DNA of 32,924 nt from Lentisphaerota bacterium (GCA_016934225.1 JAFGTH010000202.1:1-32924); one strand, 5' to 3'; counted from the stretch's first letter, positions 12,230 through 31,429 are shown. The notes: generated by a model from the sequence alone, not told the origin. Numbers and translations: made by a program.

Positions 12230-12292
12230 AATTCGCCGCCTCATGATAAGCTTCAAGCAAATGGGTTCGGAAAACGCCACAAAGCAAAAGCA

Positions 12293-13653: not shown

Positions 13654-15647
13654 TGCAAAAAACAAAACAAAATAAATCCGGTCACCAAAAAGCGCATCAG
13701 GTAAATGCCTGTCACGACGATCTGTATGCCATTACTGCACGTTATGAAGCCGTCTTGGCCGCAATTCCGGATATAGTCATGGAGACGGATCAAAACAAGG
13801 TCTATGTATGGGCTAACGCAGCGGGCATTGAATTTTTTGGAGATGATGTCATAGGCAAGGAGCCAGCCTATTTCTTTGTCGGCGAACAAGACACATATAA
13901 TTTAGTGGACCCCCTGTTTCAAGGAAATGAGAAGGTTGTCTATGTCGAGAGCTGGCAAAGAAGAAAGGACGGACAAGAACGACTTCTCGCATGGTGGTGC
14001 CGTGTCATGAAAAATGCCAACGGCAATGTCACCGGAGTGCTCTCAACAGCCCGCGATATTACCGATCAATACCGCGCACAAATCAAACTTCGGGAATCCG
14101 AAGACCGAATCCGTAAGATCATGGAGGTGGCTCCCGATGCGTTTTATGTAACGGATATTAATGGAACGATTCTGGACGGAAATGCCGCAGCCGAGAAAAT
14201 AGTCGGATATAAACGCGAAGCTCTTATCGGCAAAAACATATTTGAAGCGAATTTGTTGAGGCCGGAGGATACGACCAGGATCGAGGCCCTCATGGCCCAG
14301 GAGGCCTCCGGTAAACCCACCGGGCCGGACATTTTTGTGATTCACCGAGGCGATGGCGCCATGATCACGGTGGAGTTGCGTGGAACACCTACAATTATCA
14401 ACAACGAGGAAGTGGTGGTATGTTCAATGCGCGATATTTCCGAACAAAAAAGGTTGGAACAGGATCTGTTGGATTCGAATTCGCAACTAAATGAAGCACT
14501 GAACAATTTAAGAGAGACGCAAGACCAGATGCTTCATAATGCGCGCCTTAGCGCCTTGGGACAAATGGCAGGGGGAATTGCACACGATTTTAATAATATC
14601 CTTATGCCTATCGTGGGTCTAAGCAATTATCTTTCATCTTATTCGCATGCTTTAGACAACAAGGAGGAGGCGCTTTCCATGCTGAAACAGATCGAGAGAG
14701 CAGCCAACGATGCAAGAAATATTGTTCACAATCTCAGATTGATTTACAAACCGACTGCTATAGAACCGTTCGAGCGAATAGATGCCGATGCGCTTGTGAC
14801 CAGCGCACTGGACATGACAAGCCCAAAGTGGAAAGAAGAGCGTCAGGCCATAGGCAAACCCATTAACACAAAACTGGTTGCCACGGCCAATCGCACGCTC
14901 ATGGGCAATGAAACAGCGCTACGGCAAGCACTTGTCAATCTCATACTCAATGCTATAGATGCTATGCCGGAATCCGGCACGTTAACCGTATCATCGCGTT
15001 CGGATAATGAACATGTTCTATTGGAAATAACAGATACCGGCATCGGAATGACGGAAGACTGCAAGATAAAATGTCTCGAACCTTTCTTCTCGGATAAAGG
15101 GGTCAAGGGCACAGGAATCGGTCTGGCAATGGTAAATATCGTTGTCAAACAGCACAATGGAACCATTGAAATTGACTCCGAATCCGGAAAAGGCACGACG
15201 GTTCGAATCCGGCTTCCTGCGGATAGTAAAAACAAACTTCCAGAGGCTAAGCCACATTTGCGCCAGTCGAAACCGGCGTCTTCGCGTCTACGCATTCTGG
15301 TTATAGACGACGAATATCTCTCTTGTAGCCTGCTCAGTCGGCTTCTCAGAATAGATTCTCATAGCGTTGAAACAGCCTCATCCGGCAAAGAAGGCATCGA
15401 GAAATTCAAAGATGACGATTTCCATTTGGTTTTCACGGACCGATCAATGCCGGATATGCACGGCGACGATGTGGCAGGAATTATCAAAAAGCTCCGCCCC
15501 GATGTTCCAATAATCATGCTTACAGGATTTGGCGACATCATGAACGAGAAGGGCGAATTACCCGTGTCTGTTGACAAGGTAGCGTGCAAGCCTGTTACCT
15601 TACAGGATTTAAGAGGCTTAATTGCTGAAACTATAAAATCGTTATAG
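13653..15647 (+). CDS. cytoplasmic hybrid sensor histidine kinase (PAS-PAS-HisKA-HATPase-REC)
   Basis: There is no TM segment. Two PAS-like blocks end in ARDITDQ and MRDISEQKRLE. The H-box is GIAHDFNNILMPIVG, the N-box LVNLILNAIDAMPESG, G1 DTGIGM and G2 GTGIGLAMV. The C-terminal REC shows LRILVIDDE, LVFTDRSMPDMHG, IIMLTG and CKP. Confidence 0.92.
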   Translation: MQKTKQNKSGHQKAHQVNACHDDLYAITARYEAVLAAIPDIVMETDQNKVYVWANAAGIEFFGDDVIGKEPAYFFVGEQDTYNLVDPLFQGNEKVVYVESWQRRKDGQERLLAWWCRVMKNANGNVTGVLSTARDITDQYRAQIKLRESEDRIRKIMEVAPDAFYVTDINGTILDGNAAAEKIVGYKREALIGKNIFEANLLRPEDTTRIEALMAQEASGKPTGPDIFVIHRGDGAMITVELRGTPTIINNEEVVVCSMRDISEQKRLEQDLLDSNSQLNEALNNLRETQDQMLHNARLSALGQMAGGIAHDFNNILMPIVGLSNYLSSYSHALDNKEEALSMLKQIERAANDARNIVHNLRLIYKPTAIEPFERIDADALVTSALDMTSPKWKEERQAIGKPINTKLVATANRTLMGNETALRQALVNLILNAIDAMPESGTLTVSSRSDNEHVLLEITDTGIGMTEDCKIKCLEPFFSDKGVKGTGIGLAMVNIVVKQHNGTIEIDSESGKGTTVRIRLPADSKNKLPEAKPHLRQSKPASSRLRILVIDDEYLSCSLLSRLLRIDSHSVETASSGKEGIEKFKDDDFHLVFTDRSMPDMHGDDVAGIIKKLRPDVPIIMLTGFGDIMNEKGELPVSVDKVACKPVTLQDLRGLIAETIKSL

Positions 15648-15671
15648 CGTGTAGTCGTATATGAGCAATAA

Positions 15672-17342
15672 ATGCTGACATTTTTCAAAAACATATCGCT
15701 GGAAAAGACAAGCTGGCGCAGCCGAATGATAGTCGTGTTCGCACTGACGTCCATTATCCCTTTGCTTACTCTAGCTCATTTCGTCCTGGCATATGTCATT
15801 CCGAATGCCGTTACTTCTGAAAATATTATTATAATCGGCTTCTGCAATCTCGTCATTGCAATCGGCGGCTTTTTCATTCTACGAAACATGATCATGGCTC
15901 AAACGAATATCAAAGCGTACCTGGAAAGACTGGCAACGGGCGACTTGGAAAATCAGCTCATTACTAAAAACGGACCTGATTCCGACAGTATCGCGAAATC
16001 TACAAATGCAATTGTCGGCCGCATTCGGAACGCTCACACTCAACTGGAAAAACTCGCCAACACACGTACTTCTGAGCTTGCCCAAGCGAACAAACGTCTC
16101 CAAAACGAATTAGCCGAACGCGCAAACATGGAAAAAGCGCTGAGAGAAAGCAATATGAGACTCTCAGATGCGTTGAGAGATCTTCAATACATGCAGCGCG
16201 AACTCATACAACAGGAGCGCGTCAGCGCACTTGGCCAGATGGCCAGCGGTATCGCTCATGATTTCAATAATGCACTCATGCCTATTGTCGGATTGAGCGA
16301 ACTGCTGCTCGATCAATCCGACATGCTCAATGACAAAAAGGAATTGCGCGTAATACTCAACGATATTCACAGCGCAGCGGTTGACGCTAGAGACATTGTG
16401 CGTCGTCTCAAGGAATTCTACAGGAAAGATGCCGAACCAGATTTTGCGCCGGTAGATTTGAATGAAATTGTGGAAAAAACGATGTTGCTCACCAAGCCGC
16501 GCTGGCAGGAAGAAATGAAAGCGCGCGGAACGCTCGTAACCATCAGTAATAAACTTGATAAAATCCCGTTGATCAACGGACACGCCTCACAGCTTCGTGA
16601 ATTGTTTACGAATCTTATTCTCAATTCCATAGATGCCATGCCCAATGGTGGCAATATTCTGGTCAAATTCTCAATCGAAACAAATTCGCTTGTCGTTGAA
16701 GTCATTGACACAGGCGAAGGCATGACATCAGAGGTCAGAAAACACTGCCTGAACCCTCTTTTCTCAACTAAAGGAACCTATGGTTCCGGCATAGGCCTGA
16801 CTGTTGCAGATAATATCGTCAAGAAACACGGAGGTTCCATTGACGTTTTAAGCGAACCTGGACAAGGCACAACTGTTCGGCTTCGATTTCCTCTGCTTCT
16901 TATAAAAACTCCGGCCGGACAACCGACCGGCGACTCTTCGCAACAAGATCTACTGCATCCGCTGCGTATTCTCGTTATAGAGGATGACTCAAGATCAAGC
17001 TCGCTACTGGAGAAATACCTTTCTGCCAATAATCATGTTGCGGTGACGCAAGCAGCCGGCAAAGACGGAATTGCCTGTTTCAAATCGGACCATTTCGATG
17101 TCGTGCTGACCGATCGCGCTTTGCCTGATATGAGCGGCGATAGCGTGGCGCAATCAATCAAAGAAATCAATCCTGACACGCCGATTATCATGCTCACAGG
17201 ATTCGGAGAATTGATGAAGGATAAAGGCGAGATTCCGGATTGCATTGATATACTGCTCAGCAAGCCGGTAACCTTTGACGAGTTGCATGCCGCAATCCGT
17301 GAGGTTGCAACTCGCTTGAAGAAAGAAACTAAACAACCCTAA
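15672..17342 (+). CDS. membrane hybrid sensor histidine kinase (2 TM-HAMP-like-HisKA-HATPase-REC), paralogue of the preceding kinase
   Basis: Two hydrophobic helices (MIVVFALTSIIPLLTLAHFVLAYVI and IIIIGFCNLVIAIGGFFIL) are separated by only about 8 residues. The H-box is GIAHDFNNALMPIVG, the N-box FTNLILNSIDAMPNGG, then DTGEGM and GSGIGLTV. The REC shows LRILVIEDD, VVLTDRALPDMSG, IIMLTG and SKP. Confidence 0.92.
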   Translation: MLTFFKNISLEKTSWRSRMIVVFALTSIIPLLTLAHFVLAYVIPNAVTSENIIIIGFCNLVIAIGGFFILRNMIMAQTNIKAYLERLATGDLENQLITKNGPDSDSIAKSTNAIVGRIRNAHTQLEKLANTRTSELAQANKRLQNELAERANMEKALRESNMRLSDALRDLQYMQRELIQQERVSALGQMASGIAHDFNNALMPIVGLSELLLDQSDMLNDKKELRVILNDIHSAAVDARDIVRRLKEFYRKDAEPDFAPVDLNEIVEKTMLLTKPRWQEEMKARGTLVTISNKLDKIPLINGHASQLRELFTNLILNSIDAMPNGGNILVKFSIETNSLVVEVIDTGEGMTSEVRKHCLNPLFSTKGTYGSGIGLTVADNIVKKHGGSIDVLSEPGQGTTVRLRFPLLLIKTPAGQPTGDSSQQDLLHPLRILVIEDDSRSSSLLEKYLSANNHVAVTQAAGKDGIACFKSDHFDVVLTDRALPDMSGDSVAQSIKEINPDTPIIMLTGFGELMKDKGEIPDCIDILLSKPVTFDELHAAIREVATRLKKETKQP

Positions 17343-18603: not shown

Positions 18604-18692
18604 AAGGCTAATATTGACAGGCTGCTATCTTTTCTTGACTACTCAACAAGAGAAGGGCATGAGTGTATGCAACGAAAGGAAACCAGATATTA

Positions 18693-19931
18693 ATGACCGA
18701 ACATAGCAAATATGATTCCCGTTCCGATACGAATAGTACGGCTCATGCAGCTAAAAAAGAAGACAACGATCCAATGGAAGAACGTCGGCAACTGGCCGAC
18801 CGAATGTCCAAGATTAAACGCAAGATTATCGTGATGTCCGGCAAGGGGGGTGTCGGCAAAAGCACAACCGCTGTGAATTTGGCATTCGCACTTGCAAAGA
18901 AAGGACTGTCTGTGGGTTTGCTTGATGTTGACATACACGGACCCAGTATACCTGCGCTACTCGGCCTTGAAGATCAAAAAATTGCCGGCAACGGCAAGGT
19001 GCTTTTCCCAGTGGATGCTCAAGGATTGAAAGTTATGTCTATCGGGTTTATGCTGCAAAACCGTAATGACGCCATCATCTGGCGCGGCCCAATGAAGCAC
19101 GGTTTAATCAAACAGTTTCTCAAGGACGTTGAATGGGGTTCTCTCGATTATTTGATCGTTGATTCCCCGCCGGGTACAGGCGATGAGCCTCTGACCGTCT
19201 GTCAGTTAATCAACGATCCTTATGGAGCGTTGATTGTTACAACTCCTCAAAAATTGGCGCTTTTGGATGTCCGTAAATCCATTACCTTCTGCCGACAACT
19301 CAATATGCCGGTACTCGGAGTGGTGGAAAATATGAGCGGACTGGTTTGTCCTAAATGCGGAACAGTCGTGGAAGTGTTTAAGACAGAAGGCGCCCGCGCC
19401 ATGGCCGATGAAATGGGCGTGCCGTTCCTCGGCGCCGTACCGTTGGATCCGGACATCGTGTCGGCTTGCGATAACGGCGTTCCATACTTGAGTACATACA
19501 CAAATTCACGTTCAGCGCAGGCGTTCGAGACAATGATACGGTCAGTCATAGAACCCGACGCTCAACCCCCAAACACGATGAGGGAAAACACCATGCGAAT
19601 AGCAATTCCCACTGTTGATGGAAAACTGTCAATGCACTTTGGACACTGTGAACAATTTGCGATTGTTGAGGCAAATATCGCGGCAAAAAAAATCGGGAAT
19701 ATTGAGTTCACGACTCCGCCTCCACATGAACCGGGCGCGCTACCGAAATGGCTGGCCGAACAACAGGCCGATATCATCATCGCCAGCGGTATGGGAACAC
19801 GCGCACAAGGCCTATTTGAGGCACAAAACATCAAAGTGGTCGTGGGAGCTCCGTGTCTTGATCCGATAAGTATCGTCCAGTCTTACATGGATGGCACTTT
19901 GGAAAACGGCGCTAATGTTTGCGATCATTAA
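18693..19931 (+). CDS. Mrp/NBP35 (ApbC-type) Fe-S cluster carrier ATPase fused to a C-terminal NifX-like domain
   Basis: The deviant Walker A is IIVMSGKGGVGKSTTAVNLA, with DSPPGTGDE and the CxxC ligand motif GLVCPKCG. The C-terminus MRIAIPTVDGKLSMHFGHCEQFAIVE...PPPHEPGALPKWLAEQQADIIIASGMGTRAQGLFEAQNIKVVVG is a Nitro_FeMo-Co-type domain. The frame is open from GTG 18663, but ATG 18693 is preferred. Confidence 0.88.
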   Translation: MTEHSKYDSRSDTNSTAHAAKKEDNDPMEERRQLADRMSKIKRKIIVMSGKGGVGKSTTAVNLAFALAKKGLSVGLLDVDIHGPSIPALLGLEDQKIAGNGKVLFPVDAQGLKVMSIGFMLQNRNDAIIWRGPMKHGLIKQFLKDVEWGSLDYLIVDSPPGTGDEPLTVCQLINDPYGALIVTTPQKLALLDVRKSITFCRQLNMPVLGVVENMSGLVCPKCGTVVEVFKTEGARAMADEMGVPFLGAVPLDPDIVSACDNGVPYLSTYTNSRSAQAFETMIRSVIEPDAQPPNTMRENTMRIAIPTVDGKLSMHFGHCEQFAIVEANIAAKKIGNIEFTTPPPHEPGALPKWLAEQQADIIIASGMGTRAQGLFEAQNIKVVVGAPCLDPISIVQSYMDGTLENGANVCDH

Positions 19932-19974: not shown

Positions 19975-21318
19975 ATGAATAAAAAAGATGTGGTTATCGT
20001 GGGGGGCAGCGCGGCAGGTCTCACGGCCGGAATTACTGTCCGCAGACACTATCCAAATAAAACCATCCTGCTTGTCCGAAGCGAAGAACAAGTGCTCATA
20101 CCTTGCGGTATTCCATACATCTACGGCACTGTCGGCAGCCCGGAAAAGAATCTGATCCCTGATACGCTTCTGGAGAAAAACAAAATAGACCTTCTCATAG
20201 CCAACGCCACAAACATTGATACCAATGCGAAAGTACTGAAAACAGACAAAGGCGATGTAAACTATGACCGTATGATTCTTGCCACAGGCTCCATCCCTTC
20301 GGTTCGACCAATGCCCGGATTTGATATGAATGGTGTTTATCCCATTATCAAAACCGTGCCGCATCTGACAGATCTTCAGAAACAACTTAAATCAGCCAAT
20401 GATGTTGTTGTTATCGGGGGTGGATTCATCGGAATCGAATTCGCCGATGAGATCAAGAAAAGCGGCGTGAAAAACGTCACCATAATCGAAATTATGTCCC
20501 ATTGTCTTAATTTGGCTTACGATACCGAGTTCTGCATTGATATGGAAAAACATATTGCGGCTCGAAATATCAACATTATAACTAATGTCAAGGTAGCATG
20601 TGTAAAAGGAAACGGCAAAGTTGAGGCTGTTGAGTTAGAAAACGGGCGGGAAATACCGGCCAATGTTGTCATTCTCGGCACCGGAGCAATGCCTAATGTT
20701 AAACTCGCCGAGAGCGCGGGACTTTCTTTGGCGCCAGACGGGTCTATTGCCGTGGATCGAATGATGAAAACATCTAATAGTTCAATATTTGCATGCGGCG
20801 ATTGTGCTCAAAAGGTATCATTTTTCGGAGGTGTGCCTTCCACACTAAAACTCGCTTCCATTGCGACATTTGAAGCGCGAATTGCGGGCGCCAATCTCTT
20901 TGCCATTAAAAGAGAAAATATCGGCACTGTCGGTGTATGGTCCACCGCTGTGGGCAACCTTGCCGTCGGAACCGCAGGTTTGACAGAAACAATGGCAACG
21001 AAAAACGGCTATGATATCATCAGTGTTTCCGTCGAAGGACCTAATCGCCATCCCGGCGGAATGCCTGGAAGCACGATGACACGTATGAAACTGGTTTTTG
21101 AAAAGTCTTCCGGAATATTGCTTGGCGGCCAGGTAATCGGCGATTCATCCGTGGGTGAACTCATTAATGCATTGTCGGCGTGTATTCAAAAAAGAATGGT
21201 GGCCGAGGATCTGGCAATGTTTCAAACCGGTACTCATCCGGCCTTGACAGCATCGCCTATTGTATATCCGATTGTCACCGCAGCGGAAATGGCTATAGCT
21301 AAAATGTCGAAGACGTGA
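19975..21318 (+). CDS. FAD-dependent pyridine nucleotide-disulfide oxidoreductase (NADH oxidase / CoA-disulfide reductase-like)
   Basis: The FAD fold is VVIVGGSAAGLTAG. A single redox Cys sits in the Nox/CoADR position (LIPCGIPYIYG). The NAD fold is VVVIGGGFIGIEFA, and IFACGDCA is present. Length is 447 aa. Confidence 0.88.
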   Translation: MNKKDVVIVGGSAAGLTAGITVRRHYPNKTILLVRSEEQVLIPCGIPYIYGTVGSPEKNLIPDTLLEKNKIDLLIANATNIDTNAKVLKTDKGDVNYDRMILATGSIPSVRPMPGFDMNGVYPIIKTVPHLTDLQKQLKSANDVVVIGGGFIGIEFADEIKKSGVKNVTIIEIMSHCLNLAYDTEFCIDMEKHIAARNINIITNVKVACVKGNGKVEAVELENGREIPANVVILGTGAMPNVKLAESAGLSLAPDGSIAVDRMMKTSNSSIFACGDCAQKVSFFGGVPSTLKLASIATFEARIAGANLFAIKRENIGTVGVWSTAVGNLAVGTAGLTETMATKNGYDIISVSVEGPNRHPGGMPGSTMTRMKLVFEKSSGILLGGQVIGDSSVGELINALSACIQKRMVAEDLAMFQTGTHPALTASPIVYPIVTAAEMAIAKMSKT

Positions 21319-21348: not shown

Positions 21349-21380
21349 AAAAAACTCAGAACGCCCGTAGAAGGGTTCTG
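21349..21380 (-). terminator. rho-independent terminator of the acd/GNAT/deacetylase operon
   Basis: Immediately after the stop at 21381-83, the minus strand reads CAGAACCCTTCTACGGGCGTTCTG. This is a 6-bp stem CAGAAC/GTTCTG plus 2-3 further pairs after a bulge. It is followed by AG and TTTTTT (21354-21349). Confidence 0.55.
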
Positions 21381-22541
21381 TCATCCTTTTGCACTGTTGA
21401 GTTCAGGGTCAAGGCCATGATACGGAAATAGTGTTGCCTTGATTCGCCCGACGACGCGTTTGACCTCCCTGTCTATCGCCATACGCGTACCGGCATCACT
21501 AATTAATATTCTGTCTCGAAGACCGCCTGTCCATTCCGTTGTCTCCAACATAACCCCACCCATTCCAAGCCCCAGCTCTCCACCACCCTCTTCGCCGCAG
21601 AGAACACGCCAGGCAAGCGCCCAACCACGAACGGTATTCGGCACGTTATAGCCACCGCCACCAGTCATCAGAATCGGCTTCCCGATTGACATTATCATGG
21701 AGATGATATCGGCATGGACATTATTCGTCAGGTTCAGGTGCGCGAGCGGATCGCCCGCCAAACCGTCCATGCCTAATTCCAGAATTACCACATCCGGATC
21801 ATACGCCTTCAACAAGGGAAATGCCGCATTTTGAAACGCATACTTGTAGGCGCCATCATAAGTCCCGACCGGCAGCGGAATATTAACGTTGTAACCCTCG
21901 CCGGCTCCATGGCCTGTTTCGCTTTCCCAGCCAGTACCCGGGAAAAGCGTCTTGCCGTTTTCATGCAACGAAATTGTTATTACATCGTTGCGATCATAAA
22001 ACGCTTTCTGCACGCCATCACAATGATGTACGTCAAGGTCTATGAACGCAACACGTTTGTGGGACTGTGTCAGTATTATTGCAGCCAATACAACGTCATT
22101 CATGTAACAGAACCCACCTGCTTTTTCCGGCTCAGCATGATGAAAACCGCCGGAAGGGTTGAACGCCATAAAAGCCTCGCCGGCAAGAATCAAACGGGCG
22201 CCGGTAATGGATGCTCCGCAGGCCAACGCTACAAAATCGTACATACCCTTGAACACCGGACAATCAGGAGTGCCAAGCCCGGCTTCAAGCGATTCTACGG
22301 TCAAATTTCCGTTTTCAGCCTCGCGAATGATATTCAAATATCTGGCCGTATGGAATAATTCAAGTTCTTGCCGCACTGCCGGAACCGGCGCGCGTTCTTC
22401 AATGTCGGACCCCGTTAATGCGCCAATGGAAACAAGTTTTTTGCGTGTTAACCCTGCGCGATGCGTATTAAAAGGACAGTCCGGAGGATATCCGCCCCGA
22501 TCCAGATCGGGACAATGCAGGAAATATTTCTTCCGTGTCAT
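21381..22541 (-). CDS. histone-deacetylase-family (AcuC/AphA-type) Zn-dependent deacetylase
   Basis: Motifs present are GGFHHAEPEKAGGFCYMNDVVLA, IDLDVHHCDGVQKAFY, DGLAGDPL and MTGGGGYN. The ATG (22541-22539) overlaps the TAA (22543-22541) of the upstream gene, giving TAATG. Confidence 0.9.
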   Translation of the reverse strand: MTRKKYFLHCPDLDRGGYPPDCPFNTHRAGLTRKKLVSIGALTGSDIEERAPVPAVRQELELFHTARYLNIIREAENGNLTVESLEAGLGTPDCPVFKGMYDFVALACGASITGARLILAGEAFMAFNPSGGFHHAEPEKAGGFCYMNDVVLAAIILTQSHKRVAFIDLDVHHCDGVQKAFYDRNDVITISLHENGKTLFPGTGWESETGHGAGEGYNVNIPLPVGTYDGAYKYAFQNAAFPLLKAYDPDVVILELGMDGLAGDPLAHLNLTNNVHADIISMIMSIGKPILMTGGGGYNVPNTVRGWALAWRVLCGEEGGGELGLGMGGVMLETTEWTGGLRDRILISDAGTRMAIDREVKRVVGRIKATLFPYHGLDPELNSAKG

Positions 22542-24415
22542 TATGCAAATTCCATACGGAAACTGTACGCATCATCGCCTGGTTCGCTGGTAACCCTGAA
22601 CTCGCTCTTGTTAAGAACCGCCTGCATGGCTTTGTTCTCTATCAAAACTTCAGCGGTGAAACCGCCGATACCGTTTCTCTTGGCAATAACGGCAAGATGC
22701 TTTAACAGAAAAGTTCCTATTCCCTGCTTTTGCCATTCGTCCCTGACAACAAAGGCGACTTCGGCAAAGTTTGTCTTTTCGTTCAGATAATAACGACCTA
22801 TAGCTACAATCTCATCCCCGTACGCTTCCGGAATAGTCGCTACAATCGCAATGTCCTTTCTGTGATCAATAAACACGAAATCCTGAATCTGTTTTCGTGG
22901 AATATGTTTGGCCCGCGACATGAACCTATAATAAATAGTCTGTTGCGACAACGCATAGAACAATTCCTTTAATCGGGGCTCGTCTGTCGGATGCATCGGG
23001 CGTATATTTAACTGGGTTCCGTCATCGAGCACGTGACTTGTTCTGAAACTCGGAGATCCCACAACAATTTTCCCCTCCACATCGGCGTAATCCGGGCTGA
23101 GGTATTTCGCCTCCACCGCTTCGCGCGTTAACTGCGCTCTGAAATCCGGATGCGCTATGGCAATGAGAGCAATTGCGCGTTCCTGTATGCTCTTGCCGTG
23201 CAAATAGGCTACTCCATACTCTGTAACAACGTAATGCACGTCGCCTCTGGTCGTAACCACTCCGGCGCCAAGACTGAGATTGGTTGTAATTCTGGAGACA
23301 GTCCCGTTTTTTGCCGTTGACGGCAGGGCAATAATTACCTTGCCGCCACGCGAACGCGCCGCGCCGCGATTAAAATCCACCTGCCCTCCTATGCCGGAAT
23401 AAAACTGCGTTCCCAATGAGTCGGCGCAAATTTGTCCGGTCAAGTCAACTTCCAGCGCAACATTTATCGCAACCTGTTTGTGCTGACTGCTGATGATATA
23501 CGGATCGTTCACATACTCTGTCGGATAAAATGCAAACATGGGATTATTGTCTATATAGTCGTAAAGTTTTCGGCTGCCCATGCAAAAACTGGCCACTATC
23601 TTTCCACGGTCCACAGATTTCATATTGCCGGTAATCACGCCTGATTCAATAATGTTCATGATCGCGTCCGTGAACATTTCAGTGTGTACTCCCAATTCCT
23701 TCTTATCGGCAAGGAACCGTATGACCGATTGCGGTATTGCTCCGATTCCGAATTCCACTGTTGATCCGTTTTCCACAAGCGCCGCCACATATTCTCCTAT
23801 TTTGTCCAAATCTGCCGACGATTCCTGAGGCGAAATTTCAATGATATCAGCTTCCGAGGGCACCAAGAAATCAATGTCGTACACATGAATGCCGTTGCCC
23901 AGTGTGCGCGGCATTTTCGGGTTAACCTGCGCAATAACAAGGCTCGCGTTCTCCGCCGCGCTTTTCACAATATCAACCGACACTCCAAAACTGCACATAC
24001 CCTGATGGTCCGGCGGCGTCACCTGTATCAACGCCACATCCAGCGGAAGTTGCCCGGAAGAGAACAACGTCGGAATATCAGATAAGAAAATAGGGGTATA
24101 GTTTCCAAGCCCTTCCTGAATCACCTCGCGCACATTCTTCGATATGAAAAAACTATTGACTCTAAAATGCTGAATAAGTTCCCGACTGGCGTAAGGAGCA
24201 GTGCCCAGAGTCAACAGATGAACGATCTCAATATCGCGAAGCTCCTTCTTCCGCGCTACTAGCGCGTTCACCAATTCTTCCGGTTGCGCACAGCCCGTAC
24301 CCACAAAAACTCGCTGTCCGGCCACAATATGCCCAACAGCATCAGATAGCGAAACAATTTGATCCGCGTATTTTTCCAGCCAATTCACATCGTAGGACAC
24401 TGTTGTCTTGCTCAT
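22541..24415 (-). CDS. fusion protein: acetyl-CoA hydrolase/transferase (4-hydroxybutyrate CoA-transferase-like) domain + C-terminal Pat-type GNAT acetyltransferase domain
   Basis: The N-terminal ~430 aa show WLEKYADQIVSLSDAVGHIVAGQRVFVGTG, GVHTEMFTD and YSGIGGQVDFNRGA, the family GGQxDF motif. The C-terminal ~190 aa (about 22544-23015) read IRPMHPTDEPRLKELFYALSQQTIYYRFMS...IAIVA...VRDEWQKQGIGTFLLKHL. That is a GNAT with the Q/RxxGxG acetyl-CoA loop, resembling the C-terminal domain of Pat-type lysine acetyltransferases. Confidence 0.85.
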   Translation of the reverse strand: MSKTTVSYDVNWLEKYADQIVSLSDAVGHIVAGQRVFVGTGCAQPEELVNALVARKKELRDIEIVHLLTLGTAPYASRELIQHFRVNSFFISKNVREVIQEGLGNYTPIFLSDIPTLFSSGQLPLDVALIQVTPPDHQGMCSFGVSVDIVKSAAENASLVIAQVNPKMPRTLGNGIHVYDIDFLVPSEADIIEISPQESSADLDKIGEYVAALVENGSTVEFGIGAIPQSVIRFLADKKELGVHTEMFTDAIMNIIESGVITGNMKSVDRGKIVASFCMGSRKLYDYIDNNPMFAFYPTEYVNDPYIISSQHKQVAINVALEVDLTGQICADSLGTQFYSGIGGQVDFNRGAARSRGGKVIIALPSTAKNGTVSRITTNLSLGAGVVTTRGDVHYVVTEYGVAYLHGKSIQERAIALIAIAHPDFRAQLTREAVEAKYLSPDYADVEGKIVVGSPSFRTSHVLDDGTQLNIRPMHPTDEPRLKELFYALSQQTIYYRFMSRAKHIPRKQIQDFVFIDHRKDIAIVATIPEAYGDEIVAIGRYYLNEKTNFAEVAFVVRDEWQKQGIGTFLLKHLAVIAKRNGIGGFTAEVLIENKAMQAVLNKSEFRVTSEPGDDAYSFRMEFA

Positions 24416-26520
24416 CGCTCTTGCTCCAATTTGCCGGCAAGAGTTATTCGAGCATCGGCGGCTATCGAATCCTCGCCCGGTTTGCCGGCAATGAAAGGAT
24501 TGATGTCCATCTCCAGAATTTCCGGGAAATCCGTGACCAGTTGACTTATTCTCTGCAACCCTGTCGCAACCGCATCAAAATCCACCCGCGCTTGTCCGCG
24601 CGCTCCTTTCAACAAGGCAAAAGACTTTGTGCTCTCCAGCATCTTCATGGCCTCGGCGTTGGTTATTGGCGCAATGTGAAACGCAACATCCTTCATCACT
24701 TCAACAAAGATTCCGCCCAGCCCGAACATGAGCATCGGCCCAAACTGAGGATCGCGTGTCATGCCGAGTATGATTTCCCTGCCCCGTTTGCACATCTGCT
24801 CCAAATATACACCGTTAATTCGCGCCTTCGGCATGCGTTCTTTAATTCGCATCGTCATAAGATCAAATGCGTCACGTACAGCGTCTTCCGAATCCAGATT
24901 CAGTTTAACGCCGCCAATGTCGGACTTATGAATAATGTCCGGAGATGCAATTTTCATCGCCACGGGCAAGCCGACTTTCAGCGCAATTTCTATCGCCTCA
25001 TCTGCCGTAGCCGCCAAGCCGCCCAACGGCACATTAAATCCGTACGCACTCAACACTTCTTTGGCATATGCTTCACCCATTTGAAATTGCTCGGTTCGAA
25101 TGTGCCTGTTGATGATCCTTCTTACGCGCCTCCTATTTACAAGGAACCGCGTAAGTATCCTTGGCGGTCGCCGCAACCATTCCGAATACTCGCTCATGGC
25201 CTTTAGAGCGGCAATTGCCCTTTCCGGAGACGGATAATCGGGCAAATTCTGAGACATGAGCGTGTCGCGACCCGTTGACACATCAAGCCCGCCCATAAAC
25301 GAAACCAGTATCGGCTTTTTGTTCCTCGCGCAACCCGCAATGGCTTGTGCGGTTTCCACAGGTTTTGTCATGGCCTGCGGGGTCAATATAACCACTATGG
25401 CATCCACCGAATCGTCGCTCTGCGCCGCCTCAACAGCCATGACATACCGCTCAGGATCGGCATCACCCAATACATCAATCGGATTGCCCACGCTTGCCGC
25501 GGACGGCAACTTGCTTTTGAGCGCAGACGCCGAAGCAGTGGCCAATGTGCATACTTTCATGCCCGAAAGTTCAACAGCATCGGCAGCCATAATTCCGGGA
25601 CCACCGGCATTTGTAATGATCGCCACGTTATTCCCCTTGGGCAACGGCTGCATCGCCAACGCCATGGCATAGTCGAACAACGACTCGAACGTATCCGCGC
25701 GTATGATGCCCGACCGACTAAACGCGGCGCCATAGGCCATATCAGCGCCCGCAAGACTGCCAGTATGCGATGAAGCCGCCTTGCCACCCGCCTGGGTAAC
25801 ACCCGACTTGAACACAACCACAGGTTTCTTAGAAGAAGCGTTCTCTGCAGCTTTCATGAATTCGTCGCCGGATCCGATGCTTTCCAGATAGCCCACAATG
25901 ACTTTCGTCTTGTCGTCTTCCGCAAGCGCATTCAGAAAATCCGTCTCGGACAAATCGGCCTTGTTGCCGACACTAACAAGCTTGGCCAAACCAAGATGCC
26001 GTGACGCAGCCCAGTCCAGTATCGCAGTACAAAGAGCGCCCGATTGGGACACTACAGAAATTCCGCCCTGTAAAGGCATGTGCTTGGCAAACGAAGCGTT
26101 CATCCGATGATGCGCGTTGATCAAACCCAGACAATTCGGACCAAGCAAACGCACTCCCTTTGACAGACACATTTGCGCTATCTCGCGCTCAAGCGCCATG
26201 CCCGCATCGCCGACTTCCTTGAACCCTGCGGTAATCACCGCTATCGCTCCGGCTCCAGCCGTAATGGATGCATCAATCGCATCTCTCACAGCCGCCGTCG
26301 GAATAGCAATGACCGCAAGGTCAATCTTTTTGCCATATGATTCGAGATCCGGGTAACACTTGAGCCCACACACTTCATCAGCTGAAGGATTCACGGGTAC
26401 GATACTCCCGCCAAACCCGCCGTCTTTCAAATTAGCCAATATTTCGTAACCCACCTTGCCCGGCGTTCGTGATGCGCCAATTACAGCTACAGTTTTGGGT
26501 TCCAGTAATGCCTCAAACAT
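24412..26520 (-). CDS. ADP-forming acetyl/acyl-CoA synthetase (fused alpha-beta, acetate--CoA ligase family)
   Basis: The 702-aa product has a CoA-binding N-terminus (TVAVIGASRTPGKVGYEI) and a phosphohistidine loop (AASSHTGSLAGAD). The C-terminal ATP-grasp part reads AKEVLSAYGFNVP...VAMKIASPDIIHKSDIGGVKLNL. Its stop overlaps the next ATG (ATGA at 24415-24412). Confidence 0.9.
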   Translation of the reverse strand: MFEALLEPKTVAVIGASRTPGKVGYEILANLKDGGFGGSIVPVNPSADEVCGLKCYPDLESYGKKIDLAVIAIPTAAVRDAIDASITAGAGAIAVITAGFKEVGDAGMALEREIAQMCLSKGVRLLGPNCLGLINAHHRMNASFAKHMPLQGGISVVSQSGALCTAILDWAASRHLGLAKLVSVGNKADLSETDFLNALAEDDKTKVIVGYLESIGSGDEFMKAAENASSKKPVVVFKSGVTQAGGKAASSHTGSLAGADMAYGAAFSRSGIIRADTFESLFDYAMALAMQPLPKGNNVAIITNAGGPGIMAADAVELSGMKVCTLATASASALKSKLPSAASVGNPIDVLGDADPERYVMAVEAAQSDDSVDAIVVILTPQAMTKPVETAQAIAGCARNKKPILVSFMGGLDVSTGRDTLMSQNLPDYPSPERAIAALKAMSEYSEWLRRPPRILTRFLVNRRRVRRIINRHIRTEQFQMGEAYAKEVLSAYGFNVPLGGLAATADEAIEIALKVGLPVAMKIASPDIIHKSDIGGVKLNLDSEDAVRDAFDLMTMRIKERMPKARINGVYLEQMCKRGREIILGMTRDPQFGPMLMFGLGGIFVEVMKDVAFHIAPITNAEAMKMLESTKSFALLKGARGQARVDFDAVATGLQRISQLVTDFPEILEMDINPFIAGKPGEDSIAADARITLAGKLEQER

Positions 26521-26576: not shown

Positions 26577-26593
26577 CGGCACACGTTTTGCCG
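26577..26593. promoter_or_regulatory. palindromic CGGCA-N7-TGCCG box with sigma-54-like GG-N10-GC spacing in both orientations
   Basis: The plus strand reads cGGCACacgttTTGCcg (GG 26578-79, GC 26590-91), a very good match to TGGCAC-N5-TTGC, but it points antisense into the activator gene. The minus strand reads cGGCAAaacgtGTGCcg and points at the acd operon, whose ATG (26520) lies 57 nt downstream of the box. Confidence 0.3.
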
Positions 26594-26619: not shown

Positions 26620-26648
26620 AATATATATCGTGCGGCATCTGCATGCAA
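26620..26648 (-). promoter_or_regulatory. candidate sigma-70 promoter for the acd operon
   Basis: The minus strand reads TTGCAT (26648-26643), a 17-nt spacer, then TATATT (26625-26620). It lies about 100 nt upstream of ATG 26520. Confidence 0.3.
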
Positions 26649-26670
26649 ATTCCAAAACCGGACATCATAA

Positions 26671-28299
26671 TCACCCCGATTTCTCGGCATCCGCTCGTCT
26701 CAATTTCCGCCACAGCGTTGCCGGACTGATTCCAAGGATTTTTGTCGCCGCAGTTTTGTTGCCTCCGACCGACTCCAGAACCGCTTGAATATGATTCTTT
26801 TCCAAATCGCTTAACGTTTGCGGTTTGTCTGTAGGGCCGCCACGCCACCGGGAAGCCATATTGACAACCGAACCGGGTAAATCTTCACGCTTGATCACAT
26901 GATCAGCGCACAAAATAGCCGCTCTTTCGATAACATTCTCCAATTCACGAACATTGCCCGGCCACGAATATGACAACAGAGGATCCAGGCACGATGCGTC
27001 CAGTTGAAGCTTGGGCATTTTTAATTTTCCCGCGACATTTTTCACAAACAAACGCGCCAACGGCAAAATGTCGTCAGTCCTGTCGCGCAACGGAGGCACT
27101 TCGATCTCTATCACGCCAAGCCGATAAAATAAATCCTCTCTGAATGTCCCGTTTTGAACCATATTTTTCAAATCTCTGTTCGTGGCGGCTATGACCCGAA
27201 TGTCCACTTTGCGCGTCTTGCTTTCGCCTACTCGCATAATCTCGTGCTCCTGCAATACGCGAAGAAGACGAAGTTGCATACTTTGCGAAATATCACCGAT
27301 CTCATCCAGGAAAATGGTCCCCTTTTGCGCCTGTTCAAAAAGGCCGACCCTGTCGTCCGTCGCCCCAGTGAACGACCCGCGTTTATGCCCGAACAATTCG
27401 CTTTCAAGAAGATTCTCCGGAAGCGCGCCGCAGTTCACTCCCACAAACGGACCGGCAGATCTTGCCGAAAGACCGTGGATATGCCTGGCCAATACCTCTT
27501 TCCCAACACCGCTTTCGCCTGTAATCAAAACGGATGCGTCATAACCCGCAACACGAATCGCCAGTTCCAACACTTTTCTGAATGCCTCGCTCTTGACCTC
27601 CACCATCCCCAGCGAAGCAATTTCCTCGCTCGCATGCATGGCCAATAAATTCTCCGTCGGCGTCTGTCGTTTAAGAACCTGCGTCAGATCCATAACCTTG
27701 CCGCGAATGTCGTCCGCGCGGAAATAGGGCAAATGCGGTCTTATCTCGTCACCCCATGAGGCCGCATCTTTTCCGGAAGCAATGCATGCTCTGTCGCCGG
27801 CCGCTCGACACTTCCGCTCAATGAAATATATTTCCGTGCCCATGCAGAAGGACGCGTATCCGCTTGCGTATCCTACCAGCATCCAACAAGCCGGTTCGTC
27901 GGAACGACCAAATTCCATCAGGTGCTCCTCAGCCTCGCCGGAATTGTGCCAGATTACCTCCATCTCAAATTTGCCGGACGCTTCATCCATTTTCAAAGAC
28001 TTCGTCACAACACGCGTTACCCCCTGCAACGCATGCATCCGCGGACCGGCTTTTATCCATTCTTTCGTGTTGCGCCATTGGAATATACGCTTCATCGCCG
28101 CCGCGTCGGCGTTCCCCCAGTAATACCCAAATCGCGTGAACATCCGCCTGGCTTCGTTCATTCCAACAGTCTGCACCAGATCATGCCGAAACTGTGCGAA
28201 AGCATGAAGCGAATGCAATACCAGCCGCCTGCCATGTAAATTCAAGGCTCCATCCTCAAAACTCACCAATTCCTCAAGTTTTAGCTCTTCCGCCTTCAT
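26671..28299 (-). CDS. sigma-54-dependent transcriptional activator, XylR/DmpR-like (XylR_N + V4R sensor, AAA+, Fis-type HTH)
   Basis: Walker A is [15 protein letters not shown], followed by [15 protein letters not shown] (a GAFTGA variant) and Walker B IFLDEIGD, then [10 protein letters not shown]. The C-terminal HTH is [22 protein letters not shown]. The N-terminal ~200 aa ([23 protein letters not shown]...[17 protein letters not shown]...[13 protein letters not shown]) fit the XylR_N/V4R small-molecule-sensing module. Confidence 0.9.
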
Positions 28300-28346: not shown

Positions 28347-28486
28347 TGTATTGCAGTATGAAATATATAGTATAAACAATCAAGTTTTTTCCATCTGAGG
28401 CTGTCACGGTGAGTATAAGCATAAACGGCCCGTAAATATTGCCTTCTTGCACAATTCCTGAGGATGCATTTGCCCCGTACAAGTGT

Positions 28487-28502
28487 TGGCACGACAACTG
28501 CA
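28487..28502 (+). promoter_or_regulatory. sigma-54 (-24/-12) promoter of the M20 hydrolase / ackA' operon
   Basis: TGGCACGacaaCTGCA matches the consensus TGGCACG-N4-TTGCW with one mismatch. GG is at 28488-89 and GC at 28500-01, with exact 10-nt spacing. It lies 54 nt upstream of ATG 28556 and is divergent from a sigma-54 activator gene. Confidence 0.72.
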
Positions 28503-28555
28503 ATATGAGAATCCGGAAACACACAGCTATAACAACACAGGAAAGAGAGGCTCAT

Positions 28556-29785
28556 ATGTTTGATCTTATGCGACGCAAGGCCAAATTGCTTGAGAAGGAT
28601 GTTGTCGAGTTCGCCGCAAGACTGGTGCGCACTCCCAGTGTTACAACTCACGAAGCTGATGTTGCGGCACTCGTGGAAACGACAATGCGGAATATCGGGT
28701 ATGAGAACGTTTTCCGCGACGATGCCGGAAACGTGGTCAGTGTCATACCGGGACGCCGGAATGCTCCAACCGTTCTGCTGTTGTCTCATATGGATACTGT
28801 CGCACCCGATGAAAAGAACAATTGGACGCATCCGCCTTTTGACGGCGTTATTGAAAACGGGCGTTTGCACGGTGTCGGATCGTCGGATTGCAAATCAGGG
28901 CTGGCTGCCCAAATCTTTGCGGGCGCCTTGCTTAAGCGAACCCTGCTTCCACTTGAGGGCAACATGATAGTCGCCGCCACCGTTTCGGAAGAAAACGGCG
29001 GCAGTCCCGGCGCGCGAGCTCTCATGGAAAACACACTTCCGGCCATGCAAATGAAACCTGATTTTGCCGTTCTGGGTGAGCCGACAGGCCTCGCCCTGTA
29101 TCACGGCCATGACGGCTGGGCCCAATTCGACATATTGGTGTACGGAGCAAATCAGTTCCAGGTTGACGACGCTGCTCGCGCCGTCGAAACCCATCTTTCA
29201 GAACGCAGCCGCTATTCGCGACAAAACCGATACAGTGATCAAACTATCGTAGCCAGACGTCCGACACAACTGGTGGAGGGATTCCACCGCGGCACAATAC
29301 AACTCACCAGGCGCATGAATGAGCGTGAAGACTACCGCGATGTTGCCTCGCAGATACATCATAACGCCGCTCTGGTCGCAGAATCGGTGGGTAGCGCCGA
29401 CGTATCGGTATCCATTCCACAAACCAGACAACGCCTCTATACCAACAGAACCGTCGTGACAAAGAACATTATCGAGGCATGGTCCACAGATCCGTTCAAC
29501 GCTGTAATGGAACGCCCGCGCCAGGCCCTGATGGCCGCGGGATGCAAAGCGCAGGCGGGCAAATGGTCCCTACCGCGCTGCGGAATGGCAACGGCGGGCG
29601 GATTGCTGCTCAAGACCTTCGGCGTGCCCACGATAGGGTACGGACCCGGCAACGAGGAAACCGCGCATTCCGCCAATGAATCGGTGGAAACAACCATGAT
29701 CGAGCAAGCCATGTTCGGCACGGCTGTCATCGTCCACAGTCTTGTCGGAATCCCCGTGTGCGGATGGACGGCCGACGAAATTTGA
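28556..29785 (+). CDS. M20-family metallohydrolase (ArgE/DapE/aminoacylase/CPG2-like)
   Basis: ATG 28556 follows GGAAAGAGAGG. Metal-ligand motifs are LLLSHMDTV, GVGSSDCKSG, VSEENGG and ETAHSANESV. The longer ORF from 28439 would include the sigma-54 promoter and was rejected. Confidence 0.85.
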   Translation: MFDLMRRKAKLLEKDVVEFAARLVRTPSVTTHEADVAALVETTMRNIGYENVFRDDAGNVVSVIPGRRNAPTVLLLSHMDTVAPDEKNNWTHPPFDGVIENGRLHGVGSSDCKSGLAAQIFAGALLKRTLLPLEGNMIVAATVSEENGGSPGARALMENTLPAMQMKPDFAVLGEPTGLALYHGHDGWAQFDILVYGANQFQVDDAARAVETHLSERSRYSRQNRYSDQTIVARRPTQLVEGFHRGTIQLTRRMNEREDYRDVASQIHHNAALVAESVGSADVSVSIPQTRQRLYTNRTVVTKNIIEAWSTDPFNAVMERPRQALMAAGCKAQAGKWSLPRCGMATAGGLLLKTFGVPTIGYGPGNEETAHSANESVETTMIEQAMFGTAVIVHSLVGIPVCGWTADEI

Positions 29786-29811
29786 CGCTATTGAGGAGAA
29801 TATACAGCGCA

Positions 29812-30336
29812 ATGAATATACTTGTCTTTAATTGCGGAAGTTCGTCTCTGAAATTTCGCCTTATCGCCATGCCTGACGAGAAAGAGTTGATCAGCGGTGA
29901 GGCACAGCGCATAGGCCCGCCCACCGCTCTGCCGTCGAAAATAATCTACAGAGTCCGCGACGAGAAATTCGCCACGGAAATACAAATGGCGGATCACGAA
30001 GCCGCATTGCGGCAAATAATGACCATTTTAACGGGAATACCCGATTGTTCGCCTGATCTTGTCGCTCATCGTCTCGTTCACGGCGGTTCGCGAATCACTG
30101 CGACGTCTCCGGTCACAAGCGCCGTGGCTGAAGATTTGCGGATGGTGAGCAGTCTCGCACCTCTGCATAATCCGCCGGCAATTGCGGCGCTGGAGGCATG
30201 CCGCAAACACTTCCCGCATTTGTCTCAAGTCGTCGTGTCCGATACCGCATACCACAACACCATACCGGAACATGCGGCAATATATGCCTTGCCGAAAGAT
30301 TTGCGCACGCAAACAGGCATACGGAAATATGGATTT
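29812..30336 (+). pseudogene. ackA: acetate/propionate-kinase family gene, 5' fragment only (about 175 of ~400 codons)
   Basis: GAGGAG lies 13 nt upstream of the start. The product reads MNILVFNCGSSSLKFRL...HRLVHGG...LAPLHNPP...VVVSDTAYHNTIP...GIRKYGF. Homology stops where the family continues HGTSH. The frame then reads into the inverted repeat of the mobile element and terminates at 30489. Confidence 0.8.
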
Positions 30337-30342
30337 GTATTC

Positions 30343-30371
30343 CAGGGTCAGACCTTGGTTATTGACTTTAG
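30343..30371 (+). repeat. left 29-bp inverted repeat of the element
   Basis: This is an exact reverse-complement match to 31401-31429. It contains the small palindrome GGTC-A-GACC. It overlaps the last 8 codons of the transposase gene. Confidence 0.9.
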
Positions 30372-31376
30372 TTTTAATATTCTTGCTTTCAGGCGATTTA
30401 TACGTTTCGTTAATGTCTTGTCTTCTTCCATTTGCCTTTTAAACCGCTGCCGTAGTTTGGACACCGATGAATCGTTGGTATACCCATAATATTGCCCTAC
30501 GCATCTCTGGCTTCTAGCACTTATTTGACACGATAAATAAACCGCTGTTCTTTTGGCGAGCGACGCTTTGTGACCGTGCTCGTGAAGAACTTCAGGCTTT
30601 ACACCAAATTCTTCAGCAACCGTTTCTTCTATATCTCCCAACTCTGCTATTCGCTCTCTTGGCCGATATATGTCTCCGCCACCGCATGCTTTCGCTAAAT
30701 GCATTTCCTTAAGATCATTTTCAGATTCTTCAATAAATTTATCACCCCCTATCGCATACCGGCTTACTTTTAGCGCTTTCTTGAATTCTTCATCATCTTT
30801 AGCTGTCATCTCCTCCAAATATCGCTTATATGCAGCAGCGTTACCTTTTTTCGTTTTAAGCCCCATTTGATATAACCAGCGATAATCTATTATCTCTTCC
30901 TCTTTTGTTTTATCGATGTAGCCCGGGTAACTGCTCCATCTAAATTGGTTCAAATACCTTATCCGTTCAGAGAAAAGCTCGCTCTGCATCCTACGTGTTT
31001 TAACAGGATTTAGATGTATATATCTCGTCAGCCGAATTATATAATCGTCACCAGCGACAAGCTTAGCTCCATATCTCCCCTGAAAACAGTGCCCTGGTTT
31101 ACCATGTTTGTACCTGAAGTACATGCTATAGGCTGTATTGAGCCTTTGCATGAATCGTTTTACGTTGCCCAGCGGGGTTTCAAGCAGAAGGTGGTAGTGG
31201 TTAGGCATTAATACATAAGCATAAAGAATCACTTCGTCTTTTTCAAGAGCGTCTTTAAGCTGATTAAGAAATCTCTGGTAATCACAATCCTCTATGAATA
31301 TCTGCCGCCGACCATTTCCTCTGGAGGTTATATGATACTTCGCCCCTGAATACGTTACTCTCCATGGCCTTGTCAT
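30348..31376 (-). CDS. Y1 (HUH) tyrosine transposase, RayT/IS200-like, with C-terminal HTH-like extension
   Basis: The 342-aa product shows YHITSRGNGRRQIF and the HUH motif in YAYVLMPNHYHLLLETP. The catalytic-Tyr helix is RLTRYIHLNPV. The C-terminal ~90 aa (LAKRTAVYLSCQISARSQRCVGQYYGYTNDSSVSKLRQRF) resemble a DnaA-C-terminal-type HTH. Confidence 0.88.
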   Translation of the reverse strand: MTRPWRVTYSGAKYHITSRGNGRRQIFIEDCDYQRFLNQLKDALEKDEVILYAYVLMPNHYHLLLETPLGNVKRFMQRLNTAYSMYFRYKHGKPGHCFQGRYGAKLVAGDDYIIRLTRYIHLNPVKTRRMQSELFSERIRYLNQFRWSSYPGYIDKTKEEEIIDYRWLYQMGLKTKKGNAAAYKRYLEEMTAKDDEEFKKALKVSRYAIGGDKFIEESENDLKEMHLAKACGGGDIYRPRERIAELGDIEETVAEEFGVKPEVLHEHGHKASLAKRTAVYLSCQISARSQRCVGQYYGYTNDSSVSKLRQRFKRQMEEDKTLTKRINRLKARILKLKSITKV

Positions 31377-31400
31377 ATAAATAACATATCATCATTCACC

Positions 31401-31429
31401 CTAAAGTCAATAACCAAGGTCTGACCCTG
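31401..31429 (-). repeat. right 29-bp inverted repeat of the element
   Basis: ctaaagtcaataaccaaggtctgaccctg is an exact reverse complement of 30343-30371. It lies 24 nt upstream of the transposase ATG and 7 nt from the stop codon of the next gene. Confidence 0.9.

Follow-up and report, generated by a model that had tools for sequence, protein, structure and literature searches.

Reversible lysine acetylation of Acs, the acetyl-CoA synthetase that forms AMP, is a textbook example of how bacteria control metabolism. It is best known from Proteobacteria, Firmicutes and Actinobacteria, and five types of acetyltransferase are recognised. Pat/PatZ is an acetyltransferase of Acs with a regulatory domain that senses acetyl-CoA (PMC12184503), the sensor domain of Pat being devoid of the catalytic histidine (PMC8556138). 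In Bacillus, AcuA and AcuC control AcsA, and the acsA gene is oriented divergently to acuABC (PMC8556138). The published GNAT acetyltransferases have been divided into types I–V, which carry an ADP-forming acyl-CoA synthetase (ACD)-like, cAMP, ACT or NADP domain, or no additional domain. Here, a metagenome-assembled Lentisphaerae contig of 32,924 nt (Lentisphaerota bacterium, GCA_016934225.1 JAFGTH010000202.1:1-32924), referred to below as the window, was analysed. It contains an operon encoding an ACD, a CoA-transferase fused to a GNAT domain and a zinc deacetylase of the HDAC type. The locus may constitute a Pat/AcuC-like reversible lysine-acetylation switch placed in an operon of acetate/short-chain acyl-CoA metabolism, a reading to which we assign about an even probability.

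The three genes are located on the minus strand and code for the ACD (24412–26520, 702 aa, alpha–beta fused), the CoA-transferase::GNAT fusion (22541–24415, 624 aa) and the HDAC-type zinc deacetylase annotated as AcuC (21381–22541, 386 aa). A preliminary description of this DNA, made from the sequence, had reported that the genes were coupled by ATGA and TAATG overlaps, and both were seen directly. At the ACD/fusion junction (...gagcgATGAgc...), the ACD stop codon TGA overlaps the ATG of the fusion (24415–24412), and at the fusion/HDAC junction (...gcaTAATGaca...), the fusion stop codon TAA overlaps the ATG of the HDAC gene (22543–22539). The products named there, an ACD with the SSHTGSLAG loop, a CoA-transferase::GNAT protein and an HDAC with catalytic motifs, agreed with profile annotation and residue checks.

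In the fusion, the Pfam models were arranged in the order AcetylCoA_hydro, AcetylCoA_hyd_C and GNAT (Acetyltransf_1/3/7), the last covering residues 469–607. Residues 1–440 (23095–24415, minus strand) form a CoA-transferase domain of the AbfT/Cat2/RipA type. They matched the 4-hydroxybutyrate CoA-transferase 9vag (1.8e-137), the alignment including the HTEM glutamate and GGQxDF, the predicted domain superposed on 2oas with a TM of 0.94, and structural alignments gave 41–47% identity to the enzymes of this type (9vag, 2oas, 3gk7 and 3qli). E246 in HTEM, which we take from published work on AbfT and RipA to be the catalytic residue, and the GIGGQVDF motif were both invariant in 73/73 homologues. 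Unlike the fusion, no solved or characterised member of the AbfT/Cat2/RipA group carries a C-terminal GNAT domain, and the CoA-transferase equivalog TIGR03948 was not reached (311 bits vs. the cutoff of 675).

The rest of the chain, residues 441–624 with the stop codon (22541–23094, minus strand), comprises a linker and a Pat-type GNAT domain. Its best NCBIfam GNAT match was mycobacterial Pat (NF058543, 1e-27), well above RimI, ArsN and AAC, and the domain searched alone against the PDB matched only Pat-family lysine acetyltransferases (entries 4ava, 4nxy, 4orf, 9isq and 3f8k). The proteins matched comprise MtPat, MsPat, SlPatA, PatZ and Sulfolobus Pat (SsPat). Both results bear out the lysine-acetyltransferase-type writer proposed earlier for this locus. 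E552 (AEVAF) aligned with the catalytic E235 (AEIAF) of Mycobacterium Pat 4ava and was invariant in 73/73 homologues, and in the acetyl-CoA loop WQKQGIG, residues Q562, G565 and G567 were kept in 72/73, 70/73 and 72/73, respectively. The AlphaFold model of the fusion had a pLDDT of 80 and a pTM of 0.68, with a linker predicted to be flexible (445–454, pLDDT <50) and low confidence also in the alpha1–alpha2 region (495–516). The whole-chain structure search with this model returned CoA-transferases only, as the larger domain dominated, and the GNAT assignment was therefore made by sequence. Judged by its sequence, the fusion is a genuine two-enzyme protein composed of a family-I CoA-transferase, in which the catalytic glutamate and the oxyanion motif are intact, and a Pat-type GNAT, in which the catalytic glutamate and the acetyl-CoA loop are intact, and because the catalytic residues are kept across homologues, both halves look enzymatically competent. 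The CoA-transferase::GNAT identity had been recognised in the preliminary description, where the catalytic intactness of the CoA-transferase half went unnoticed.

The GNAT half belongs to the same subfamily as Pat/PatZ of the Salmonella and E. coli Pat/PatZ–CobB system. Residues 440–609 of the fusion align with PatZ 691–862, the catalytic glutamate and the acetyl-CoA loop are kept, and in both cases a large N-terminal acyl-CoA-binding domain precedes the GNAT. However, this N-terminal domain is here a CoA-transferase with intact residues rather than a histidine-less ACD-like domain, so that the dead ACD-like domain fused to GNAT which characterises type I/II Pat (PatZ, SlPatA) is not found in the fusion. 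Mycobacterial Pat (type III, cAMP domain plus GNAT; 4ava and 4orf) provided the best solved match to the GNAT (1e-15) and has the same order of an N-terminal regulatory domain and a C-terminal GNAT, its E235 corresponding to E552, whereas a cyclic-nucleotide sensor of about 150 residues occupies the place of the CoA-transferase of about 440 residues.

The ACD displays the five-subdomain architecture of ADP-forming synthetases (CoA-binding, ligase-CoA and ATP-grasp), with the Pfam models CoA_binding_2, Succ_CoA_lig, Ligase_CoA_2 and ATP-grasp_5 spanning residues 8–694. The phosphohistidine H252 lies in SSHTGSLAG (residues 250–258) and a second catalytic histidine, H531, in HKSD of the ATP-grasp part; among the partner ACDs of related loci, they were kept in 55/55 and 54/55 proteins, respectively. 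The best solved relative was a 4-hydroxybutyrate-CoA ligase from Nitrosopumilus, which is ADP-forming (8wzu, 4e-161, 541 bits). The regulatory domain of PatZ (9isq) also aligned with the ACD end to end (8e-102, 345 bits), with the SHTG phosphohistidine kept by the ACD and missing from PatZ. A 'split Pat' origin was considered and set aside, since the greater closeness to true ACDs than to the PatZ domain gives it no specific support. Both substrate models (NCBIfam equivalogs) scored below their cutoffs, AcCoA-syn-alpha with 555.9 vs. 567 and 4-hydroxybutyrate-CoA ligase with 643 vs. 1300. The earlier label of an acyl-CoA maker is an interpretation and was not observed as such, the ACD reaction being reversible.

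A catalytically intact ACD (by its residues) encoded as a separate protein immediately upstream of the acetyltransferase is a further difference from Pat/PatZ. The pairing recalls the acetate:succinate CoA-transferase/succinyl-CoA synthetase (ASCT/SCS) cycle, where the energy of a thioester is conserved as ATP by a CoA-transferase acting together with a synthetase. In both, a CoA-transferase is combined with an ADP-forming synthetase of the succinyl-CoA synthetase superfamily. Unlike in that cycle, the synthetase is here an ACD and not succinyl-CoA synthetase, the two genes form a fixed operon and the transferase bears a protein acetyltransferase domain.

The third protein matched Pfam Hist_deacetyl over its full length (2e-82, profile positions 2–297 of 298). 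Its best PDB matches were mostly class-I enzymes (RPD3, HDAC1/2/3 and HDAC8, ~1e-65), with HDAC6 of class IIb at a similar score. The HH dyad H134/H135, the zinc ligands D170/H172/D259 and the GGGGY tyrosine Y298 were invariant in 14/14 homologues, and the protein is named 'acetoin utilization protein AcuC' by NCBI and JGI. From these features, it is predicted to be an intact class-I zinc deacetylase, in agreement with the eraser, bearing the catalytic His/Asp motifs, of the preliminary description. A writer and a class-I zinc deacetylase annotated as AcuC thus share one operon, as in acsA/acuABC of B. subtilis. In contrast to that operon, the writer is a Pat-type GNAT on a CoA-transferase instead of the small AcuA. 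Neither an AcuA-type nor a CBS/ACT AcuB-type gene was found among the window ORFs and their Pfam matches, the partners of the deacetylase being the ACD and the CoA-transferase::GNAT fusion.

The conservation of this arrangement was analysed in related loci. When GTDB was scanned with a single genome for each species, 450 stretches with a relative of the fusion were obtained, which is an upper bound because some of them may encode unfused transferases. The neighbourhood sample comprised the best 80 of the 450 relatives, with full coverage of the fusion and 66–79% identity. They span Lentisphaerota/Victivallales, Kiritimatiellia, Verrucomicrobiota, Planctomycetota, Myxococcota, Hydrogenedentota, Poribacteria, Krumholzibacteriota, Fimbriimonadales, Deinococcota and others. 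In 68/69 loci for which 2.15 kb or more of sequence was available upstream, an ACD gene was located directly upstream on the same strand; the single exception gave a partial match. The distance from the ACD to the fusion gene ranged from −6 to 179 nt. The conserved unit is the ACD followed by the CoA-transferase::GNAT fusion, and it is essentially invariant across many phyla.

The three genes had earlier been proposed to act as one module, but the triad was not supported as the conserved unit: an HDAC gene was present within 10 kb in only 14/80 loci, in four arrangements and in several phyla. It was located directly downstream of the pair, as in the window, in L008, L040, L043, L044, L045, L064 and L081, the last being an ACD–fusion–HDAC operon with the closest homologue of the fusion (79% identity). 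In L010 and L063, it was directly upstream of the pair, in L004 and L067 divergent from it and in L007, L018, L019 and L020 as the last gene of a divergent acs operon, being co-transcribed with Acs in L018, L019 and L020. The HDAC is an accessory, optional eraser and not part of the fixed unit. In this respect, the locus also differs from acuABC, since the invariant partner is the ACD and the deacetylase is dispensable at most loci.

Clustering of the neighbouring proteins revealed a 657-aa Acs in 15 loci, and 18 loci were obtained by tblastn. This protein passed the acetate-CoA ligase equivalog model (1000 bits vs. the cutoff of 725) and ends with ...PKTRSGKIMRR. The lysine of the PKTRSGK motif is the residue acetylated by Pat and AcuA, for which AMP-forming Acs is the classical target. 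The gene was found within 10 kb in 18/80 loci, often divergent from the pair and usually accompanied by an SfMCT-type monocarboxylate transporter (MCT). With the fusion abbreviated as FUS, the layouts were HDAC<MCT<Acs< / ACD>FUS>, MCT<Acs< / HDAC>ACD>FUS>, Acs>MCT>ACD>FUS> and ACD>FUS>HDAC>, the last being that of the window. Acs, HDAC or both occurred in 14/31 loci having at least 9 kb on each side. When the 115 immediate neighbours of the pair were scanned with Pfam, AMP-binding/ACAS_N (9 and 8 genes) and Hist_deacetyl (7 genes) came out on top, and nothing else was specifically recurrent. A sirtuin was considered as an alternative eraser and rejected, as no Sir2 was found among these 115 genes; the zinc HDAC and the lack of a sirtuin among the immediate flanking genes set the locus apart from the Pat/CobB system. 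A tie to AMP-forming Acs, whether genomic or functional, is shared with Pat/PatZ, and the divergent acs next door in many related loci is shared with acsA of B. subtilis.

On these grounds, Acs is a more likely target of the proposed switch than the ACD, and the most likely one overall. Together, the CoA-transferase and the ACD would use ATP in converting acyl-CoA, acetyl-CoA and free acids into one another, in a manner resembling the ASCT/SCS cycle. The tethered GNAT would read the acyl-CoA state through the CoA-transferase domain, which would replace the dead ACD-like sensor of Pat/PatZ, and would acetylate the active-site lysine of Acs (PKTRSGK), turning the enzyme off. Silencing of Acs would thereby prevent a futile cycle between the acetate-forming ACD route and the ATP-costly activation by Acs. 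Removal of the mark by the AcuC-type deacetylase would restore Acs. In the window, the layout resembles acuABC, with writer and eraser presumably co-expressed, and the level of acetyl-CoA would decide the outcome. In the Victivallales layout, the eraser is co-transcribed with Acs and the transporter, divergently from ACD–fusion, which fits the logic of such a switch.

Several points weigh against this reading. Acs as the target is drawn from gene neighbourhood only, and neither the 33-kb window nor roughly three in four of the related loci contain Acs. Enzymes of the Pat type can act on many substrates, and the invariant presence of the ACD could equally mean that it is itself the target or a subunit of a complex. 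The closest characterised relative of the ACD is a biosynthetic 4-hydroxybutyrate-CoA ligase. Moreover, all 80 loci are metagenome-assembled and were picked as the closest homologues of the query, therefore the frequencies may misrepresent the whole family.

Among the alternatives, the one that fared best, although we regard it as unlikely, is that the writer and eraser control the ACD itself or that the ACD and the fusion form a complex, a 'split Pat' with an active ACD as its regulatory part. No other partner is invariant, the ACD and the fusion are often coupled in translation, and the ACD aligns end to end with the PatZ regulatory domain (9isq), which helps to form the substrate pocket (PMC12184503). 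However, its score is higher against true enzymes (8wzu) than against that domain, and a lysine-acetylation-regulated ADP-forming synthetase is neither known to us nor was one found in literature searches. This alternative also does not account for why Acs and the deacetylase are enriched among the neighbours. The ACD had been named earlier as a possible target, and the survey gave no support to that idea, as the enriched additional neighbours were Acs with its PKTRSGK motif and the monocarboxylate transporter.

Less probable still is a self-feeding acyl-lysine writer, in which the CoA-transferase, aided by the ACD, would make a non-acetyl acyl-CoA in place, the tethered GNAT would transfer the acyl group and the HDAC would erase it. 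Lactyl-, butyryl-, 4-hydroxybutyryl- and propionyl-CoA are candidate donors. For the ACD as well as for the CoA-transferase, the closest enzymes of known function use 4-hydroxybutyrate or butyrate, and an L-lactate/monocarboxylate transporter recurs nearby. In E. coli, the CoA-transferase YdiF is reported to supply lactyl-CoA for lactylation. An unfused precedent is the E. coli GNAT YiaC, for which lysine lactylation reversed by CobB is described, with a CoA-transferase also discussed (PMC9636275). The invariant catalytic residues of the CoA-transferase, as opposed to the dead sensor domain of Pat (PMC8556138), point in the same direction. However, the equivalog cutoffs were reached neither for the ACD nor for the CoA-transferase, the Pat-family GNATs are mainly acetyl/propionyl transferases and the flexible linker (pLDDT <50, 445–454) gives no sign of a channel. 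There is a similarly slight chance that the ACD and the fusion form a self-sufficient 'acid-to-acyl-lysine' cassette fed by an imported monocarboxylate (lactate, butyrate, 4-hydroxybutyrate or propionate), which the ACD and the CoA-transferase domain would convert into its CoA thioester, with a non-acetyl acyl group written on Acs or on many other proteins and erased by the HDAC. If such a cassette existed, the kind of acid present in the environment would be linked directly to a protein mark, and the cassette would be the fused equivalent, made by nature, of a CoA-transferase feeding a GNAT acyl-lysine writer, as reported for YdiF and YiaC in E. coli lactylation.

The least probable is a purely metabolic operon, in which the GNAT would acetylate a small molecule or bind acetyl-CoA to regulate the CoA-transferase and 'AcuC' would hydrolyse a small acetylated compound (a polyamine, sugar or amino-acid derivative): both superfamilies include small-molecule enzymes, and the window also has, close by, genes for a deacylase-type M20 protein and for an activator whose V4R domain senses small molecules, but all characterised relatives of the GNAT domain are protein lysine acetyltransferases, the HDAC is class-I-like with the catalytic tyrosine, unlike the class-II acetylpolyamine amidohydrolases (as judged by the best hits only), and the enriched neighbour Acs is a protein target.

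A CoA-transferase domain is absent from the published type I–V classification, as given in reviews and in the 2025 PatZ structure paper, a full-text literature search retrieved nothing on a CoA-transferase::GNAT fusion or operon, and the fusion is not mentioned in a paper on the acetate-activating enzymes of Kuenenia. The statement in the preliminary description that no characterised system of this composition was known is in line with both the search and the classification. CoA-transferase::GNAT is a further, widespread architecture beyond types I–V that, by analogy, would work like the Pat/CobB and AcuA/AcuC control. Its distinguishing features are a putative sensor domain that appears to be an intact CoA-transferase itself, an ACD as the near-invariant partner and an optional zinc deacetylase. 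If the switch model is true, it would explain how largely uncultured anaerobes avoid a futile cycle of acetate formation and activation, and the fusion would offer a natural enzyme-fused acetyltransferase for studying the coupling of acyl-CoA supply to protein acylation.

The architecture extended beyond the 80 loci. The search with the GNAT domain of 1.84 billion cluster representatives returned many proteins of ~605–665 aa with a C-terminal GNAT of 32–46% identity, and the five of them that were sampled were all CoA-transferase::GNAT fusions (5/5). Ferredoxin–CoA-transferase–GNAT proteins and type II Pat proteins were found in the same search. Given this degree of divergence with the same architecture, the CoA-transferase::GNAT arrangement is old and diversified. 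Two larger relatives of the fusion were P0287 (960 aa) and P0384 (965 aa). One of them consists of a 4Fe-4S dicluster domain, the CoA-transferase and the GNAT, and the other of the CoA-transferase, the GNAT and about 400 further residues with no Pfam match. A second copy of the fusion with 46–47% identity was present near the main pair in L070 (5982–7808) and L075 (18100–19923, minus strand), the order in L070 being fusion paralogue > ACD > fusion. A second ACD (33–42% identity) was encoded near the main pair in L050 (3683–5755) and L058 (15375–17483).

Directly upstream of the ACD gene, a sigma-54 enhancer-binding activator with XylR_N, V4R, AAA+ and HTH_8 domains is encoded on the minus strand (26671–28299). 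An activator of the same domain type adjoins the ACD–fusion–HDAC operon in L081, where it is divergent. In the window, a weak -24/-12 candidate, CGGCAAAACGTGTGCC (26577–26592, minus strand), was identified 57 nt before the ACD ATG, with 4 mismatches and with GG and GC correctly spaced. Near-consensus sites (TGGTAC/TGGCAC-N5-TTGC/GTGC, one mismatch each) were detected ~54–73 nt before the ACD start in 6/8 loci with the ACD>fusion>HDAC order (L040, L043, L044, L045, L064 and L081), against a background of 0.03 sites per 300 nt, and were not found in L008 or in the window. These sites suggest that sigma-54 governs this form of the operon in Myxococcota and in further phyla. The candidate of the window was retained because these loci carry near-consensus sites at a similar distance; as it is degenerate, the sigma-54 dependence here is tentative.

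A canonical sigma-54 promoter of the window operon was rejected, as the scan with up to 3 mismatches gave only a plus-strand hit in the gap. Genome-wide, the same threshold yielded 132 sites vs. 150 expected, i.e. the chance level. The alignment of the ACD upstream regions from the four closest loci revealed no convincing conserved promoter block. A sigma-70-like alternative, TTTGCA-18-TATATT (26620–26649, minus strand), lies within the 150-nt gap that precedes the ACD gene and has only 9/12 consensus matches. The best sigma-70-like match (26543–26516) was set aside because its -10 element overlaps the ATG.

The best sigma-54 match in the window, TGGCACGACAACTGCA (28487–28502, plus strand, 1 mismatch), is located between the V4R activator gene and the divergent gene for an M20/YgeY-like peptidase (28439–29785). 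Considering this position, the activator may drive the M20 unit instead of or besides the ACD operon; it may regulate the operon, the divergent peptidase gene or both. After the peptidase gene, a fragment of the acetate kinase gene ackA is located (29758–30489, plus strand). It encodes the N-terminal ~190 residues only (Pfam positions 2–177 of 392), ends with ...IRKYGF and runs into the gene for a 342-aa Y1 (IS200-like) transposase (30348–31376, minus strand), which is flanked by 36-nt inverted repeats (30343–30378 and 31394–31429, 92% complementary). No C-terminal half of ackA follows. If this break is real and not a mis-assembly, the Pta–AckA route would be interrupted, and the role of acetate/ATP enzyme may fall to the ACD.

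At the other end of the operon, 3' to the HDAC stop codon, a probable intrinsic terminator (21349–21380, minus strand) lies in the 62-nt gap ahead of a convergent gene. It consists of the hairpin sequence CAGAACCCUUCUACGGGCGUUCUG followed by AG and U6. The hairpin and T6 stretch given in the preliminary description are thus present, but the structure is modest, as the bulged 9-bp hairpin has an energy of −10.1 kcal/mol and a z-score no stronger than −0.77, and it was missing from the output of the scan for consensus terminators. Its role as a terminator is plausible. Two plus-strand genes converge on it, encoding an MrpORP-type iron-sulfur carrier (18663–19931) and a CoA-disulfide-reductase-like flavoprotein (19975–21318; 238 bits vs. 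the equivalog cutoff of 579 bits). A CoA-redox enzyme beside a CoA-thioester operon is suggestive, and the pairing did not recur in the related loci. Further upstream on the plus strand, at 12224–17342, a gene for a LuxR-type response regulator is followed by two genes for hybrid histidine kinases, one of them with PAS domains, which are apparently unrelated to the operon.

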